A DNA stretch of 64,000 nt. Source: a plasmid. Positions 43,426 through 59,183 of this stretch are shown here, piece by piece. Location: assembly GCF_988243305.1 (NCBI RefSeq), contig NZ_OZ547139.1; one strand, given 5' to 3'. Numbering within the stretch: the stretch's first letter is position 1; each line of letters begins with the position of its first letter. The notes below the pieces were generated by a model that saw only the letters and a program-made list of their open reading frames with translations, was not told the DNA's origin and did no database searches. The translations under genes were made by a program, and so were the position numbers.

Positions 43426-43441
43426 CTGTTTTTTTATACAG
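43426..43441. promoter_or_regulatory. LexA box upstream of qnrB
   Basis: CTG-N10-CAG (ctgtttttttatacag) lies 8 nt upstream of the start. SOS regulation of qnrB is established. Confidence 0.8.
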
Positions 43442-46522: not shown

Positions 46523-47344
46523 TCAGCATAAATGACAACAGTTCATTACAGTGACGGTATACGGCACCGGCTTGCCGTCACGGGTCATAGACAGACGCGA
46601 TTCCAGATTTTTGACATCAGCGGGGGCATTGAAGGTCAGGCCGATAATGGCGTGTTTTTTCATCGGATCTTGCGGATCCTGATAGAACTCCGCCCGGCCG
46701 CCGCGATAATAAAACTCAGGGGTGGTAAAGGTTTTTTGTTTCTCTGTTAACGCCACCTGCGGAGCCAGCAGTGTTTTGGCATCCATATCGACGGTGTAGG
46801 TTTTCCCCATCGGGAAGGTTTTTTTCGCCGTGAATACCAGCTTACGGTCATTACGCCACTGCCACTCACCTTCCATTGCGGGGGTCAGGGTAATACCGGC
46901 GGTGACCGGTTTACCGATCAGCGTTACCGGTGCGGCAGAGCGGGAGAATGTCACCACCACAATCTGCGCTGAATTATCATCACGGTTATAATTAACCGCC
47001 GAAGGGCGCTGCACAGACGCGGAAATATCCTGCACCACCAGCGGCGCAACATCCACCGGCTTCGGTTTGTTCTGATACCAGTGCCAGGTGTAATAACTGC
47101 CCGCTGCCACCGCAGCAGTCAGTAATAATAAGGCAGATATGGTTTTCGGATAGCGGTTGCCCCCCCGCTCCAGCCGGGCAAGCTGATTACCGGCAAAGGT
47201 CACCCAGCCCGGCACCGCCCAGCGGATCCGTCCGGTGAACGGGCGCAGCAGAAAACCCAGCAGAGTAAAGAGATAAACAAGACTGCGAGCCGCCAGACGC
47301 AGCAAAATAAAAGGTAAGCGGAGGATAAAACGCAGAACGTCCAT
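46523..47344 (-). pseudogene. N-terminal fragment (~265 aa) of a large membrane-anchored protein, truncated at about 46550; family uncertain (possibly alpha-2-macroglobulin/YfaS-like)
   Basis: N-terminal TM helices followed by beta-rich repeats. The ORF ends in junk codons (..VMNCCHLC). Family assignment is a weak recollection. Confidence 0.4.
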
Positions 47345-47538
47345 GACAACATTTTCCTCTGTGTGTTGAGACTGACATCAGTTTGCCGCAGCACACAGTG
47401 AAATCCGGTTCAGCCGGAAGCTGTCAGTGCCCGATACTCTCATCCTCCATAAAACAGCCCATAAAGCAAATTATTGCATAAGGAATAATCTTAAATTACG
47501 GCCCCGGCGTATCCGCAGGGGCCTGTTCAGGAAAAAAA

Positions 47539-49000
<1,462 letters not shown>

Positions 49001-51059
49001 GAAAAAACGGCTCCGCTCGCTGAAGGATCTGGATAAATCTGCATTGGCGCTCGCCAGCGCATGTTCGTACCTGCTGAAAGAAGAAACACCGGACGAATCG
49101 ATTCGTGCTGAGGTGTTCAGCTACATCCCAAGGCAAAAGCTGGCTGAAATCATCACGCTTGTCCGTGAAATTGCCCGGCCCTCAGACGATAATTTTCATG
49201 AAGAAATGGTGGAGCAGTACGGGCGCGTTCGTCGTTTCCTGCCCCATCTGCTGAATACCGTTAAATTTTCATCCGCACCTGCCGGGGTTACCACTCTGAA
49301 TGCCTGTGACTACCTCAGCCGGGAGTTCAGCTCACGGCGGCAGTTTTTTGACGACGCACCAACGGAAATTATCAGTCGGTCATGGAAACGGCTGGTGATT
49401 AACAAGGAAAAACATATCACCCGCAGGGGATACACGCTCTGCTTTCTCAGTAAACTGCAGGATAGTCTGAGGCGGAGGGATGTCTACGTTACCGGCAGTA
49501 ACCGGTGGGGAGATCCTCGTGCAAGATTACTACAGGGTGCTGACTGGCAGGCAAACCGGATTAAGGTTTATCGTTCTTTGGGGCACCCGACAGACCCGCA
49601 GGAAGCAATAAAATCTCTGGGTCATCAGCTTGATAGTCGTTACAGACAGGTTGCTGCACGTCTTTGCGAAAATGAGGCTGTCGAACTCGATGTTTCTGGC
49701 CCGAAGCCCCGGTTGACAATTTCTCCCCTCGCCAGTCTTGATGAGCCGGACAGTCTGAAACGACTGAGCAAAATGATCAGTGATCTACTCCCTCCGGTGG
49801 ATTTAACGGAGTTGCTGCTCGAAATTAACGCCCATACCGGATTTGCTGATGAGTTTTTCCATGCTAGTGAAGCCAGTGCCAGAGTTGATGATCTGCCCGT
49901 CAGCATCAGCGCCGTGCTGATGGCTGAAGCCTGCAATATCGGTCTGGAACCACTGATCAGATCAAATGTTCCTGCACTGACCCGACACCGGCTGAACTGG
50001 ACAAAAGCGAACTATCTGCGGGCTGAAACTATCACCAGCGCTAATGCCAGACTGGTTGATTTTCAGGCAACGCTGCCACTGGCACAGATATGGGGTGGAG
50101 GAGAAGTGGCATCTGCAGATGGAATGCGCTTTGTTACGCCAGTCAGAACAATCAATGCCGGACCGAACCGCAAATACTTTGGTAATAACAGAGGGATCAC
50201 CTGGTACAACTTTGTGTCCGATCAGTATTCCGGCTTTCATGGCATCGTTATACCGGGGACGCTGAGGGACTCTATCTTTGTGCTGGAAGGTCTTCTGGAA
50301 CAGGAGACCGGGCTGAATCCAACCGAAATTATGACCGATACAGCAGGTGCCAGCGAACTTGTCTTTGGCCTTTTCTGGCTGCTGGGATACCAGTTTTCTC
50401 CACGCCTGGCTGATGCCGGTGCTTCGGTTTTCTGGCGAATGGACCATGATGCCGACTATGGCGTGCTGAATGATATTGCCAGAGGGCAATCAGATCCCCG
50501 AAAAATAGTCCTTCAGTGGGACGAAATGATCCGGACCGCTGGCTCCCTGAAGCTGGGCAAAGTACAGGTTTCAGTGCTGGTCCGTTCATTGCTGAAAAGT
50601 GAACGTCCTTCCGGACTGACTCAGGCAATCATTGAAGTGGGGCGCATCAACAAAACGCTGTATCTGCTTAATTATATTGATGATGAAGATTACCGCCGGC
50701 GCATTCTGACCCAGCTTAATCGGGGAGAAAGTCGCCATGCCGTTGCCAGAGCCATCTGTCACGGTCAAAAAGGTGAGATAAGAAAACGATATACCGACGG
50801 TCAGGAAGATCAACTGGGCACACTGGGGCTGGTCACTAACGCCGTCGTGTTATGGAACACTATTTATATGCAGGCAGCCCTGGATCATCTCCGGGCGCAG
50901 GGTGAAACACTGAATGATGAAGATATCGCACGCCTCTCCCCGCTTTGCCACGGACATATCAATATGCTCGGCCATTATTCCTTCACGCTGGCAGAACTGG
51001 TGACCAAAGGACATCTGAGACCATTAAAAGAGGCGTCAGAGGCAGAAAACGTTGCTTAA
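49001..51059 (+). pseudogene. tnpA: Tn3-family (Tn1/2/3-type) tnpA, 5'-truncated by IS26 (C-terminal ~685 codons)
   Basis: The frame opens at the IS26 boundary and the C-terminus runs into the 38-bp Tn3 IR. Confidence 0.85.
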
Positions 51060-51092
51060 CGTGAGTTTTCGTTCCACTGAGCGTCAGACCCC
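51055..51092. mobile_element. 38-bp terminal inverted repeat of Tn1/2/3 (tnpA end)
   Basis: cttaacgtgagttttcgttccactgagcgtcagacccc is the reverse complement of GGGGTCTGACGCTCAGTGGAACGAAAACTCACGTTAAG. Confidence 0.9.
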
Positions 51093-51130
51093 TTATTTGA
51101 GTAAATGCGATTTCTGCCAGAAGGGCGGCA

Positions 51131-51205
51131 CAAAAAAACCCGACTGGTGAGATCGGGTTTTTATGTTTTGCCCCGGATGGAGGCGGGAACACCTAAACAA
51201 TTGAC
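51131..51205 (-). ncRNA. Candidate ~75-nt sRNA antitoxin (divergent from the toxin; its 5' part is complementary to the toxin leader repeat)
   Basis: Promoter TTGCAT (51240-51235), 17 nt spacer, TAATAT (51217-51212). Terminator hairpin aaacccga/tcgggttt (51136-51160) followed by U7. The body contains the reverse complement of repeat A, which is nearly the complement of repeat B (51359-51395). Confidence 0.45.
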
Positions 51206-51463
51206 GGTTAAATATTACGCCATGAGTGCAGTAAATGCAAACCACCCGGAATAGGGTATACTGCGCGGGTCAATCTGTTGACGTTCTTCTCCAGCCCCCG
51301 CTTACGCGGCGTGAACGGATTAAAGCCCTGGTTGAAAAACAGGTGGTGCTGTTTCAATGCCCTGGCTGGAGTGGGAACATCTAAACAATTGACGTGAGGT
51401 AGCCGCTGTGACAGGCAATGTAAGGGCGATCAGCGGTGTTCCTGCTCTGTATGGAGCAAACGG

Positions 51464-51559
51464 ATGATTAACTTGTTAATCGTCGTTCTGCGGGCTGTTG
51501 TTGCAGTGTCTAACGCTGTGATAGCGGTCCTGGAGCTGATCCGGCAGTATTTTGACTGA
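51464..51559 (+). CDS. Candidate type I toxin, 31-aa hydrophobic peptide MINLLIVVLRAVVAVSNAVIAVLELIRQYFD (DinQ/ZorO-like)
   Basis: GGAG 8 nt before the ATG. A bidirectional terminator at 51575-51604 follows. The core VIAVLELIR resembles DinQ LIALLELIR and ZorO LIAVLELL (from memory). Below the ORF-track cutoff. Confidence 0.5.
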   Translation: MINLLIVVLRAVVAVSNAVIAVLELIRQYFD

Positions 51560-51613
51560 CCGGAAACGTAACTAAAGGCGGGGGGACCACTCCCCGCCTT
51601 TTAACACAAACCT

Positions 51614-52123
51614 TCAGTTTACAGTCTGTTTAGCGGCCGACACCCACTTATACAGACACCCAACCGACAGGTTCAGATCAGCAGCAATTGCCTTAACTTT
51701 TTCCCCCGTTACTTTTCTGGCCTCCATCCTTTTCACGGCTTCAGCCCTGAGCGCTTCTGGTACCACTTTCACTACTGGCGAGTGCTTCCAGATCTGATGT
51801 GTCTGCGCTACGTTTCGCGCAGCCACTTTATGCAGCCTGGTGCTGGTTGCACGTTCCGGGGCGTGCTTCCTTCCTTCAGCCATGAGCGCGAGCTGTTCAT
51901 CGGGATTAATCTCGCCTCGCCGTATGCGGTTCAATACATTCTCTCTGCACTGACGGGAATGGCTGACGCTGGCAAGGGGGGTGTGTAACGGAATAGCCCA
52001 GCGTTCGCGGTATTCCCTGGCGTTCATCTGATGGGTTTTGTTCAGGTGCGGAGCCAGGAACGAGAAGTATTTTCCTCACTCCAGGCATTGAATTTTTTCC
52101 GTTAATTCTTCTTTATCAGCCAT
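51614..52123 (-). pseudogene. Ros/MucR-like zinc-finger regulator fused to a C-terminal HTH, interrupted by an in-frame TGA (52076-52078)
   Basis: AGGAGG then ATG 52123. MADKEELTEKIQCLE*GKYFSFLAPHLNKTHQMNAREYRERWAIPLHTPLAS aligns with Ros [41 protein letters not shown]. The stop codon sits at the second Cys. The ORF track shows only the 137-aa downstream part. Confidence 0.6.
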
Positions 52124-58247: not shown

Positions 58248-58505
58248 ATGCATACCACCCGACTGAAGAAGGTTGGCGGCTCAGTTATGCTGACCGTTCC
58301 ACCGGCACTGCTGAATGCGCTGTCGCTGGGTACAGATAATGAAGTTGGCATGGTCATTGATAATGGCCGGCTGATTGTGGAGCCGCACAGACGCCCGCAG
58401 TATTCACTGGCTGAGCTACTAGCGCAGTGCGATCCGAATGCTGAAATCTCGGCTGAAGAACGTGAATGGCTGGATGCGCCGGTGGCTGGTCAGGAGGAAA
58501 TCTGA
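58248..58505 (+). CDS. pemI: PemI antitoxin (MazE/AbrB fold)
   Basis: MHTTRLKKVGGSVMLTVPPALLNALSLGTDNEVGMVIDNGRLIVEP, near-identical to R100 PemI as remembered. Confidence 0.9.
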   Translation: MHTTRLKKVGGSVMLTVPPALLNALSLGTDNEVGMVIDNGRLIVEPHRRPQYSLAELLAQCDPNAEISAEEREWLDAPVAGQEEI

Positions 58506-59148: not shown

Positions 59149-59168
59149 TACTGTATATAAAAACAGTT
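59149..59168. promoter_or_regulatory. LexA box of mucAB
   Basis: TACTGTATATAAAAACAGTT (CTG-N10-CAG), 16 nt upstream of mucA. Confidence 0.85.
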
Positions 59169-59183
59169 ATTGGAGGCTAGATT

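Follow-up and report, generated by a model that had tools for sequence, protein, structure and literature searches.

Among the closest described relatives of the locus considered here are the chromosomal dinQ-agrAB module of Escherichia coli (Weel-Sneve 2013; Kristiansen 2016, PMC5066626) and the dqlB family, which was defined and named, together with its leader architecture, by Kristiansen et al. in 2016 (PMC5066626). The dqlB-agrB module of pOXA-48 has been validated by Baffert et al. (Nat Commun 2025, PMC12365149), who reported toxicity on arabinose/PBAD induction with the appearance of ghost cells, rescue by agrB in trans, a 4-nt mismatch and a compensatory mutant in the pairing region, post-segregational killing, and rescue from the killing induced by CRISPR curing. 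In the same work, Tn-seq on pOXA-48 revealed that no transposon insertions were tolerated in agrB or the agrB promoter region (PMC12365149). Toxin-antitoxin and stability functions have been independently shown for dqlB-agrB of the IncX3 plasmid pOXA-484 (PMC12317039), and a CRISPRi screen found the silencing of agrB to be strongly deleterious (PMC12361523).

The available evidence is that the locus at 51093-51612 in the window (i.e. the whole 64-kb stretch of DNA that was analysed) is, with little room for doubt, the dqlB-agrB type I toxin-antitoxin (plasmid addiction) module of IncL/M plasmids. Its 520 nt have 100% identity with pCTX-M3 (NC_004464.2), which bears a RefSeq dqlB annotation; the label given to the ORF there, and on >1000 other plasmids, is "dqlB: DinQ-like type I toxin DqlB", and a near-identical locus is present in 1125 plasmid records. 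A sequence-only reading of the window had proposed an unannotated type I toxin-antitoxin candidate with a dinQ-agrB-like architecture, and took such a locus to be without annotation on this plasmid family. The type I assignment and the architecture are upheld by a match to the NCBIfam DqlB model, the RefSeq name, and the published pOXA-48 experiments. The claims of novelty do not survive, in that RefSeq has dqlB at the same position on NC_004464.2, the family dates from 2016, and dqlB-agrB is carried by 95.5% of IncM plasmids (PMC12365149). Thus, being named, annotated in RefSeq, and experimentally shown on a nearly identical plasmid, the dqlB-agrB module here is already known and is not new. 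Likewise, the tests of toxicity, sRNA rescue, and compensatory mutation that had been suggested for the locus are already published, with positive outcomes, for pOXA-48 (PMC12365149).

The similarity to the IncL plasmid pOXA-48 extends to every functional element: the peptide (WP_004206884.1), the AgrB pairing region and its target, both promoters, the Shine-Dalgarno (SD) sequence, and both terminators are identical, with an overall nucleotide identity of 98-99%. Only 4 substitutions separate the two from the agrB terminator to the dqlB terminator, i.e. in AgrB between the seed and the terminator, between the promoters, in the leader, and, synonymously, in the ORF. Toxicity, agrB antitoxin activity, dependence on base pairing, and post-segregational killing, all experimental on pOXA-48, may by analogy be expected here, given that the functional elements are the same. 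The left boundary of the module is also shared, and dqlB converges on tra/trb in both plasmids. By contrast, the flanks differ: a 38-bp Tn3-family terminal inverted repeat (51055-51092), identified by sequence reading, adjoins the locus in the window, where pOXA-48 has repA-side sequence, and, unlike in pOXA-48, a MucR-family regulator gene lies between dqlB and trbC. The homology to pOXA-48 starts at 51093 and ends at the dqlB terminator; the Tn3 insertion therefore leaves the locus intact, as first supposed; its repeat ends 39 bp from the U-run of the agrB terminator. In a related plasmid, L018, the copy of the locus is cut by IS26 exactly at the ATG. The proximity of the Tn3 repeat, and such a disrupted copy, could be taken to mean that on this plasmid the module is in decay and no longer functions, e.g. 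with expression disturbed by the adjacent Tn3/IS26 resistance region, but this is very improbable and was rejected; the insertion lies outside the module, every functional element is identical to that of the experimentally active pOXA-48 locus, and the dqlB ORF is intact and under purifying selection, as described below. Furthermore, since a plasmid that lost agrB but kept dqlB would kill its host, the intact state of the toxin gene implies that the antitoxin works.

The dqlB ORF (51464-51559, plus strand; ORF list, NCBIfam, RefSeq), which had been noted from the outset together with its upstream GGAG, encodes the 31-residue peptide MINLLIVVLRAVVAVSNAVIAVLELIRQYFD. Direct reading finds in it the DqlB signature, comprising ~30 residues, a hydrophobic single helix of the type I toxin kind, an LELIR motif, and a polar tail. 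The peptide matches the NCBIfam model NF041473 over positions 1-31 of 31 (73.5 bits, E = 8.7e-21; cutoff 35). A weak second match, to the DinQ model NF041472, covers the LELIR core (19.6 bits, below the cutoff of 30); no further NCBIfam model was matched in the peptide profile search at E <= 1, and the peptide belongs to no Pfam family. DinQ proper, the SOS-regulated chromosomal toxin, was thus rejected as the identity of the peptide on this score and on the lack of a LexA operator in 51200-51300. BLASTP gave no alignment between DqlB and a plasmid DinQ, and homology to DinQ proper consequently rests on the profile match, the leader, and the sRNA.

The comparison covered 13 loci on IncN, IncX1/3/4, IncI, IncK/Z, and IncF plasmids, one of them a plasmid dinQ. 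Across these diverged loci, the ORF always has 31 codons, or 27 in the plasmid dinQ, and 15 aligned DqlB homologues are all of 31 residues with L/ELIR conserved. The pooled pN/pS of the 13 coding sequences is 0.17, with pS of up to 0.79. The dqlB ORF is thus intact and, to judge from these sequences, under purifying selection, for which the sequence-only reading had suggested that a search be made.

Upstream of the ORF are two repeats of ~37 nt, with perfect blocks GGGAACA (7 nt) and CTAAACAATTGACG (14 nt), confirmed as initially described. Repeat A (51170-51207) is DNA coding for the target-recognition (5') part of AgrB; repeat B (51359-51395, plus strand), 69-105 nt upstream of the dqlB ATG, is the AgrB target in the dqlB leader. 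They align with 32 matches, 5 mismatches, and 1 indel, and a 22-nt core occurs only at A and B in the 64-kb window (0 expected by chance). Repeat B is identical to, and corresponds with, the 35-nt pairing region that compensatory mutation revealed in pOXA-48. The ~75-nt minus-strand RNA complementary to the toxin leader that had been postulated is borne out as a predicted agrB sRNA at 51131-51205 (minus strand, 51205->51131), the fold of which has z = -3.2, and whose 5' ~38 nt form with repeat B a duplex of -63.5 kcal/mol with two interruptions only. Duplex energies were computed on the 5' 42 nt of AgrB, as an RNAduplex run with the whole sRNA gave an unrealistic full-length duplex that included the terminator.

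Paired repeats of this type might alternatively be protein-binding sites, iteron-like or regulatory, tied to the neighbouring replication region, with the small ORF being fortuitous; the IncL locus does indeed lie just downstream of repA, between repA and trbC. That reading is most improbable, is already contradicted, and was rejected, because the same arrangement of repeats, ORF, and terminator is found away from rep genes on the unrelated IncN, IncX, IncI, IncK, and IncF replicons, because the repeats differ from lineage to lineage and yet remain complementary to the leader and to the alternative helices, because compensatory RNA mutations restore function (PMC12365149), and because the ORF has the low pN/pS given above.

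The agrB promoter (51212-51240, minus strand) comprises a -35 TTGCAT (51240-51235), a 17-nt spacer, and a -10 TAATAT (51217-51212). These hexamers and the spacer are as originally read, but the description of the promoter as good is not sustained, since it matches the sigma-70 consensus at only 7/12 positions; it is better described as conserved, in that most of the 13 loci in the alignment have TTGC in the -35 and TAnnAT in the -10, with their distance to the seed conserved. The agrB terminator (51132-51157, minus strand) has a stem at 51139-51157, with CCCGA/UCGGG extended by A/U pairs, around the 9-nt loop UCUCACCAG, followed by U7 at 51138-51132; both sequence reading and folding thus agree with the proposal that a hairpin plus U-run ends the minus-strand RNA. 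A terminator scan missed it, as the loop exceeds the 3-8-nt limit of the scan, and folding recovered it. The sRNA promoter, single-stranded 5' seed, and terminator are conserved across the 13 loci.

The Rfam family that scores best against the window sRNA is AgrB (RF02891), whose model is covered in full (1-84) by 51131-51211 of the minus strand, with 22.1 bits (E = 0.41) and hence below the gathering threshold of 40. Same-position sRNAs in 10 other lineages score 47.7-69.3 bits, above this threshold. The window AgrB is ~18 nt shorter and is without the central stem-loop seen in other lineages; the AgrB RNAs of IncX3, IncI, IncK, and IncX plasmids keep this stem-loop and pass the threshold, whereas the window AgrB does neither. 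Its position is that of an orthologue, in that it is divergent beside the toxin gene, its 5' region is complementary to the leader, and its promoter and terminator align with those of the other-lineage sRNAs. The AgrB of IncL/M/N plasmids is a shortened form that does not reach the Rfam threshold, and an antitoxin that the AgrB model misses in this way will escape automated RNA annotation.

The sRNA terminator also matches the 3' hairpin of Rfam OrzO-P, including its CUCACCAG loop, with 21.5 bits, and the sequence-only reading had likened the peptide to ZorO as well as to DinQ, recalling a similar LIAVLELL motif in ZorO. The affinity with DinQ stands. By contrast, membership of the ZorO-OrzO family, rather than that of DinQ/AgrB, is highly unlikely and was rejected; the OrzO-P match covers model positions 47-75 only, i.e. 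just the terminator, and is far under the 60-bit threshold, NCBIfam gives the DqlB and DinQ models with no ZorO-family match, and the leader architecture aligns with that of the plasmid dinQ locus (L017).

On the plus strand, the dqlB promoter has a -10 TATACT (51257-51262) and a putative -35 ATGCAA (51235-51240), with a 16-nt spacer; all 13 diverged loci have TATA[AC]T at the -10 position. The -35 hexamers of both promoters are weak, and the two divergent promoters have one palindromic -35 hexamer in common (ATGCAA/TTGCAT, 51235-51240). A generic sigma-70 promoter scan of 50900-51900 returned no site, both promoters being below its cutoff of 9 of 12, and their assignment therefore rests on conservation across loci. 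The dqlB rho-independent terminator (51574-51605, plus strand; inverted repeat and terminator scan) comprises AAAGGCGGGG...CCCCGCCTTT plus Ts, with covariation in its stem among the loci compared. The -10 and the terminator together predict a primary transcript of ~337 nt (51269-51605, plus strand); the E. coli dinQ +1 transcript is 331 nt. No LexA box (CTGT-N8-ACAG, <=1 mismatch) is present in 51200-51300, and SOS control of the chromosomal dinQ type thus does not apply; SOS regulation carried over from dinQ was rejected for this plasmid. For the dqlB of another plasmid, a LexA-like '-119' site has been reported, its position being in the leader.

The leader contains four elements. Element 1 (51269-51296), at the predicted 5' end of the mRNA, is an imperfect inverted copy of repeat B; element 2, GGAGUGGGAA (51368-51377), lies within repeat B; element 3, UGUUCCUGCUCU (51437-51448), is an anti-SD sequence with two alternative partners, the SD (3:4 hairpin, 51444-51457) and element 2 (2:3 helix); and the dinQ-type element 4 is the SD itself, GGAG (51453-51456), which by sequence reading is 7 nt before the ATG and is invariant in the 13 loci. 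In the minimum free energy fold of the full-length RNA (z = -5.8), nt 1-28 are paired with the target region; this is the 1:2 lock, with an SD pairing probability of 0.87-1.0. With 5' truncation by 44-50 nt, the 2:3 helix forms and SD pairing falls to 0.17-0.60, an opening that is only partial in silico; when the AgrB target is masked, the SD recloses (P = 0.88-1.0). The exclusive 1:2, 2:3, and 3:4 pairings obtained by this computation are those that characterise the dql mRNA family (Kristiansen 2016), as are, apart from the weak -35, the invariant -10, spaced SD, and covariant terminator.

The conservation of the alternative helices, like the homology of the locus and the co-evolution of sRNA and target, was established by computation. 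Across the 13 loci, the share of paired cells is 96.6% for the 2:3 helix and 96.2% for the 3:4 helix, i.e. ~96% across lineages compared with 29-72% when the partners are slid; in the 2:3 helix, compensatory changes are seen, with 16 cells being changed on both sides, a value reached in 0/500 shuffles. These alignments point to conservation of mutually exclusive leader helices, as in the dinQ switch. In the MAFFT alignment, the variable target region of the IncL/M clade is 3 columns out of register with the others, which prevents scoring by column, and the 1:2 and AgrB:2 pairings were therefore scored by matrices of cognate and non-cognate duplexes. For element 1, the mean duplex energy is -30.4 kcal/mol for cognate and -21.7 kcal/mol for non-cognate pairs, with the cognate partner best in only 4/13 loci, a weaker support than that for AgrB. 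The AgrB-target duplexes average -60.6 kcal/mol for cognate and -37.3 kcal/mol for non-cognate pairs, and the cognate target is the best partner in 11/13 loci. The repeat sequence varies between lineages but A and B match within a locus (85% identity cognate, 67% non-cognate). Thus, the AgrB sRNA and its target have evolved together within each lineage, and the co-variation between repeats A and B, whose investigation had been suggested, is present, in both identity and duplex energy, across the 13 loci.

Taken with the E. coli dinQ precedent, these features suggest how the module may operate. The plus strand would give a ~337-nt dqlB mRNA, starting at ~51269 and ending at the terminator at 51574-51605, by analogy with the ends of E. 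coli dinQ RNA. This mRNA encodes the hydrophobic helical peptide of 31 residues, which acts by damaging the inner membrane. As first transcribed, the mRNA is likely inert, with element 1 paired with the leader segment 51359-51395 that includes element 2; this pairing would leave the anti-SD element 3 free to sequester GGAG in a small hairpin. Once a processing step proposed on the model of dinQ has removed ~40-50 nt from the 5' end, element 2 would be free, and may then form the 2:3 helix with the anti-SD, opening the SD for translation. The divergent AgrB (51205->51131), pairing via its 5' ~38 nt with element 2, would allow the SD hairpin to reclose, so blocking toxin synthesis while the plasmid supplies AgrB. 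On plasmid loss, AgrB is presumed, by analogy, to decay faster than the dqlB mRNA, such that DqlB would be made and the segregant would die.

The AgrB-leader duplex is probably also a substrate of RNase III, again as in E. coli dinQ, and it may be that, within the same module, AgrB acts mainly via RNase III cleavage of this long duplex and degradation of the mRNA, with SD reclosure being secondary. This is a possibility of some weight, though not the favoured one; the predicted duplex, being of ~38 bp at -63.5 kcal/mol, is a plausible RNase III substrate, but E. coli agrB needed only to bind for the SD to close and translation to stop in vitro (PMC5066626), and masking of the target recloses the SD in silico here. 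RNase III cleavage and SD reclosure are compatible mechanisms and not exclusive.

The module resembles E. coli dinQ-agrAB in having a divergent sRNA that pairs ~70-105 nt upstream of the start codon, four leader elements with 1:2, 2:3, and 3:4 alternative helices, a primary transcript of ~335 nt, the LELIR motif, and the arrangement of terminators. It differs in that its peptide is of 31 rather than 27 residues and belongs to a separate NCBIfam equivalog, in that the window has a single agr gene (no agrA), no LexA box, and an sRNA ~18 nt shorter, and in that dqlB-agrB is plasmid-borne and an addiction module. In the latter regard it is similar to hok/sok of plasmid R1, also a type I addiction system with a small membrane toxin, an inert full-length mRNA that is activated by processing, and ghost cells; the peptide and RNAs are, by contrast, unrelated. 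Sok of R1 is a cis-encoded, overlapping antisense RNA acting via the mok reading frame, and hok mRNA is activated by 3' processing, where that of the dqlB type would be activated by 5' processing.

The loci of IncX3 pOXA-484 and of IncI, IncK, and IncX plasmids have the same architecture and the same 31-residue peptide family as the window, with nucleotide identities of ~71-75%; their recognition sequences differ from that of the window, so placing them in separate specificity classes. It is tentatively proposed that the AgrB recognition segment and its target have diversified into lineage-specific classes, with an IncL/M and IncN clade that has a stripped-down ~75-nt AgrB without the central stem-loop, that partial cross-neutralisation of toxins might occur between co-resident IncN and IncL/M plasmids, and that the -35 shared by both promoters could couple toxin and antitoxin transcription. 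In silico, IncM and IncN cross-pairs reach -55 and -53 kcal/mol, compared with about -64 kcal/mol for the cognate pairs; given such strong cross-pairing, a co-resident IncN plasmid might partly neutralise the toxin of an IncL/M plasmid, or the reverse. If true, this would amount to RNA-level anti-addiction or cross-immunity between resistance plasmids.

The points that the present analysis adds, i.e. the shortened AgrB of IncL/M/N plasmids and the lineage-specific classes of sRNA-target pairs, are incremental only. The window otherwise provides confirmation, being from an IncM plasmid with an intact copy that has the same functional elements as the validated locus, and in which the adjacent Tn3/IS26 resistance region has left the dqlB-agrB module untouched. 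Previous publications have already established how much dqlB-agrB, a major determinant of stability, matters to the carbapenemase and ESBL plasmids of the IncL/M type. In pOXA-48, PemIK leaves part of the killing of plasmid-cured cells unexplained; this part is due to dqlB-agrB, which for that reason is of relevance to plasmid-curing and anti-plasmid strategies.

All of the elements described in the sequence-only reading are present in 51093-51612. The 31-codon ORF (51464-51559, +), which encodes MINLLIVVLRAVVAVSNAVIAVLELIRQYFD and is preceded by a Shine-Dalgarno (SD) sequence, GGAG (51453-51456, +; ATG 7 nt downstream), is already named in RefSeq, including in pCTX-M3, as 'dqlB: DinQ-like type I toxin DqlB' (WP_004206884.1). 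Against the NCBIfam equivalog NF041473 (cutoff 35) the peptide reaches 73.5 bits; thus the locus, first taken to be unannotated, is neither unannotated nor unknown. The DinQ model gives a weak second match in the LELIR core, at 19.6 bits, below the cutoff of 30, and a Pfam search with the peptide returned no family. The 520-nt stretch matches 1125 plasmid records in all, with 100% identity in the IncM plasmid pCTX-M3 (NC_004464.2) and 98-99% identity in hundreds of pOXA-48-type IncL plasmids. ORF length is constant at 31 residues in every dqlB locus examined (15 loci and the window), and pooled pN/pS is 0.17 across 13 dqlB coding sequences, despite pS of up to 0.79, which shows the purifying selection on the peptide that had been proposed as a check.

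Repeat A (51170-51207), the recognition part of agrB, and repeat B (51359-51395), the AgrB target in the dqlB leader, align with 32 matches, 5 mismatches and one indel, and have in common the perfect blocks GGGAACA and CTAAACAATTGACG, as originally described. Their 22-nt core occurs within the 64-kb window at these two sites only, where chance expectation is none. The minus-strand promoter before repeat A (TTGCAT 51240-51235, 17-nt spacer, TAATAT 51217-51212) exists as outlined, but its description as good was generous, in that 7/12 consensus positions are matched and a generic promoter scan did not pick it up. A terminator hairpin lies downstream of repeat A (-; stem 51157-51139, then U7, 51138-51132). 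The predicted agrB RNA, of 75 nt, folds better than shuffles (z = -3.2), and its proposed complementarity to the toxin leader is borne out by a calculated duplex of -63.5 kcal/mol between its 5' ~38 nt and repeat B. As read from the sequence, one palindromic 6-bp hexamer (TTGCAT/ATGCAA, 51235-51240) appears to serve as the putative -35 of both the agrB and the dqlB promoter, possibly such that RNA polymerase binding for toxin and for antitoxin transcription might be mutually exclusive. A common -35 may also occur in other lineages with 187-194-nt A-to-B spacing, judging from the spacing, with the window as the sequence examined.

In dinQ, four leader elements make mutually exclusive helices (Kristiansen et al. 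2016, PMC5066626). Full-length RNA, which has 1:2 and 3:4 formed and a closed SD, is inert; the 5'-processed +44 RNA, with 2:3 formed and an open SD, is translatable; and AgrB, by binding element 2, closes the SD again and makes RNase III cleavage possible (PMC5066626). The modelled behaviour of the dqlB leader reproduces this mechanism computationally. The -10 box TATA[AC]T, invariant in 13/13 loci (window copy 51257-51262), places the predicted mRNA start near 51269. The predicted ~337-nt RNA, extending to the terminator, folds with z = -5.8, and in its MFE structure the first 28 nt are paired with the AgrB target region and the SD is sequestered by GCUCU/GGAGC (51444-51457). When 44-50 nt are cut from the 5' end in silico, GGAGUGGGAA (51368-51377) pairs with UGUUCCUGCUC and the SD pairing probability falls from 0.87-1.0 to 0.17-0.60; with the AgrB target masked in silico, it returns to 0.88-1.0. 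Pairing across 13 loci amounts to 96.6% in the 2:3 helix (48-72% with partners slid), where 16 cells are changed on both sides, a value reached by 0/500 shuffles, and to 96.2% in the competing 3:4 SD hairpin (slid, 29-56%).

Homology between the window and pOXA-48 begins at 51093, directly past a 38-bp Tn3-family inverted repeat (51055-51092), and ends at ~51606, directly past the dqlB terminator. Within the module, bounded by the agrB and dqlB terminators, the two sequences differ by four substitutions. AgrB has one, in the stretch from pairing region to terminator; a second falls between the divergent promoters; a third is in the leader but clear of the pairing elements; and the fourth, in the ORF, is synonymous. 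Identity is complete in the AgrB recognition region, repeat B, both sets of -10/-35 boxes, SD, anti-SD and peptide, so the pOXA-48 results should, on grounds of sequence, be directly applicable to the window locus. Baffert et al. 2025 validated dqlB-agrB on pOXA-48, where DqlB induction is toxic, leading to ghost cells, and agrB in trans rescues (PMC12365149). Rescue is lost with a 4-nt mismatch in agrB and regained with a compensatory change in the leader; agrB by itself is enough to rescue cells from the killing caused by CRISPR curing of pOXA-48; and zero transposon insertions were recovered in agrB or its promoter (PMC12365149). The same work reports dqlB in 99.3% of IncL and 95.5% of IncM plasmids (PMC12365149). 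IncX3 dqlB-agrB has been validated independently (PMC12317039), and in clinical strains targeting agrB with CRISPRi guides is strongly deleterious (PMC12361523). Experimental support for the type I toxin-antitoxin interpretation thus comes from a locus whose functional elements are identical to those of the window.

The diverged loci compared, from IncN, IncX1, IncX3, IncX4, IncI-gamma/K1, IncK2/Z and IncF-type plasmids together with a plasmid-borne dinQ, are about 71-87% identical to the window in nucleotide sequence. In the 13 loci where the repeat pair was mapped, one copy is 70-110 nt ahead of the ATG and the second a further 187-246 nt upstream. The anticipated co-variation of A and B is apparent, in that the repeat sequence varies between lineages yet agrees within each locus: cognate pairs are 85% identical versus 67% for non-cognate pairs, mean predicted duplex energies are -60.6 and -37.3 kcal/mol, respectively, and the cognate partner gives the best duplex in 11/13 loci. 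Three parts of the sRNA gene can be aligned from lineage to lineage: its promoter, the unstructured recognition region at the 5' end, and the terminator with its loop CUCACCAG. The same-position sRNA passes the Rfam AgrB threshold (40) in ten loci (47.7-69.3 bits). AgrB is also the best family for the window sRNA, aligning end to end, but at 22.1 bits; the IncL/M and IncN clade has lost ~18 nt forming the central stem-loop.

Some plasmids carry two tandem dqlB copies, e.g. a Shigella dysenteriae IncI plasmid (NZ_CP026778.1; L012 944-1039 and 1628-1723). A second AgrB-like RNA in one IncK2/Z plasmid (L016 402-489) scores 37.4 bits, just under the Rfam threshold, and its presence recalls the chromosomal agrA/agrB pair. 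In an Enterobacter asburiae IncFIB plasmid (NZ_CP109697.1; L018 2501-2874), an IncL/M-type copy of the locus matches as far as the dqlB start codon, with IS26 alongside (transposase gene annotation beginning at 2927). This copy has kept agrB and the entire leader but not the toxin ORF, and so is an orphan antitoxin remnant.

Compared with chromosomal dinQ-agrAB, the window locus differs in peptide length (31 versus 27 residues), in having a single agr gene and a shortened sRNA, and in that no LexA operator was found at the dqlB promoter. The suggested affinity with ZorO/OrzO was not upheld, resemblance being confined to peptide type in general and to the terminator hairpin of the sRNA. In the window (51134-51162, -) and in five comparison loci (L007, L008, L010, L015, L016), that hairpin, its CUCACCAG loop included, matches the one at the 3' end of Rfam OrzO-P, the zorO antitoxin; the two sRNA families may have a common terminator module or a common origin.

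Downstream of dqlB, a MucR-family regulator gene (51614-52123, -), found in IncM plasmids and missing from IncL plasmids of the pOXA-48 type, is cut short by a stop at codon 16, where TGA replaces a cysteine of the CLEC zinc finger, leaving a 137-residue ORF from an internal ATG. The stop arises from T at 52076, where NC_004464.2 has A; the best-scoring plasmid records are 99.8% identical over this stretch, and none among the matches listed is identical to the window. Co-linearity between the window and NC_004464.2 breaks down upstream of about 49000 (~47093-49000), so the resistance-region structure differs, and the two differ at two bases (54398 and 54400) in a trbC-like 695-residue ORF; the window therefore comes from a pCTX-M3 relative or another sequence version, not from NC_004464.2. 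Exact LexA-box-like CTGT-N8-ACAG palindromes (e.g. CTGTATATAAAAACAG) occur at 43426-43441, 58320-58335 and 59151-59166, the last just upstream of plus-strand ORFs starting at 59170 and 59184; their total on the plasmid stretch is not above chance.

The dqlB-agrB system is not new, the dinQ-like (dql) genes of enterobacterial chromosomes and plasmids having been defined, and split into dqlA and dqlB, in 2016 (Kristiansen et al., PMC5066626), annotated in RefSeq and validated in 2025. Two points keep some mild interest: the short AgrB variant, which falls below the Rfam threshold, and the division of the recognition sequences into lineage-specific classes, with IncM/IncN cross-pairing being possible.
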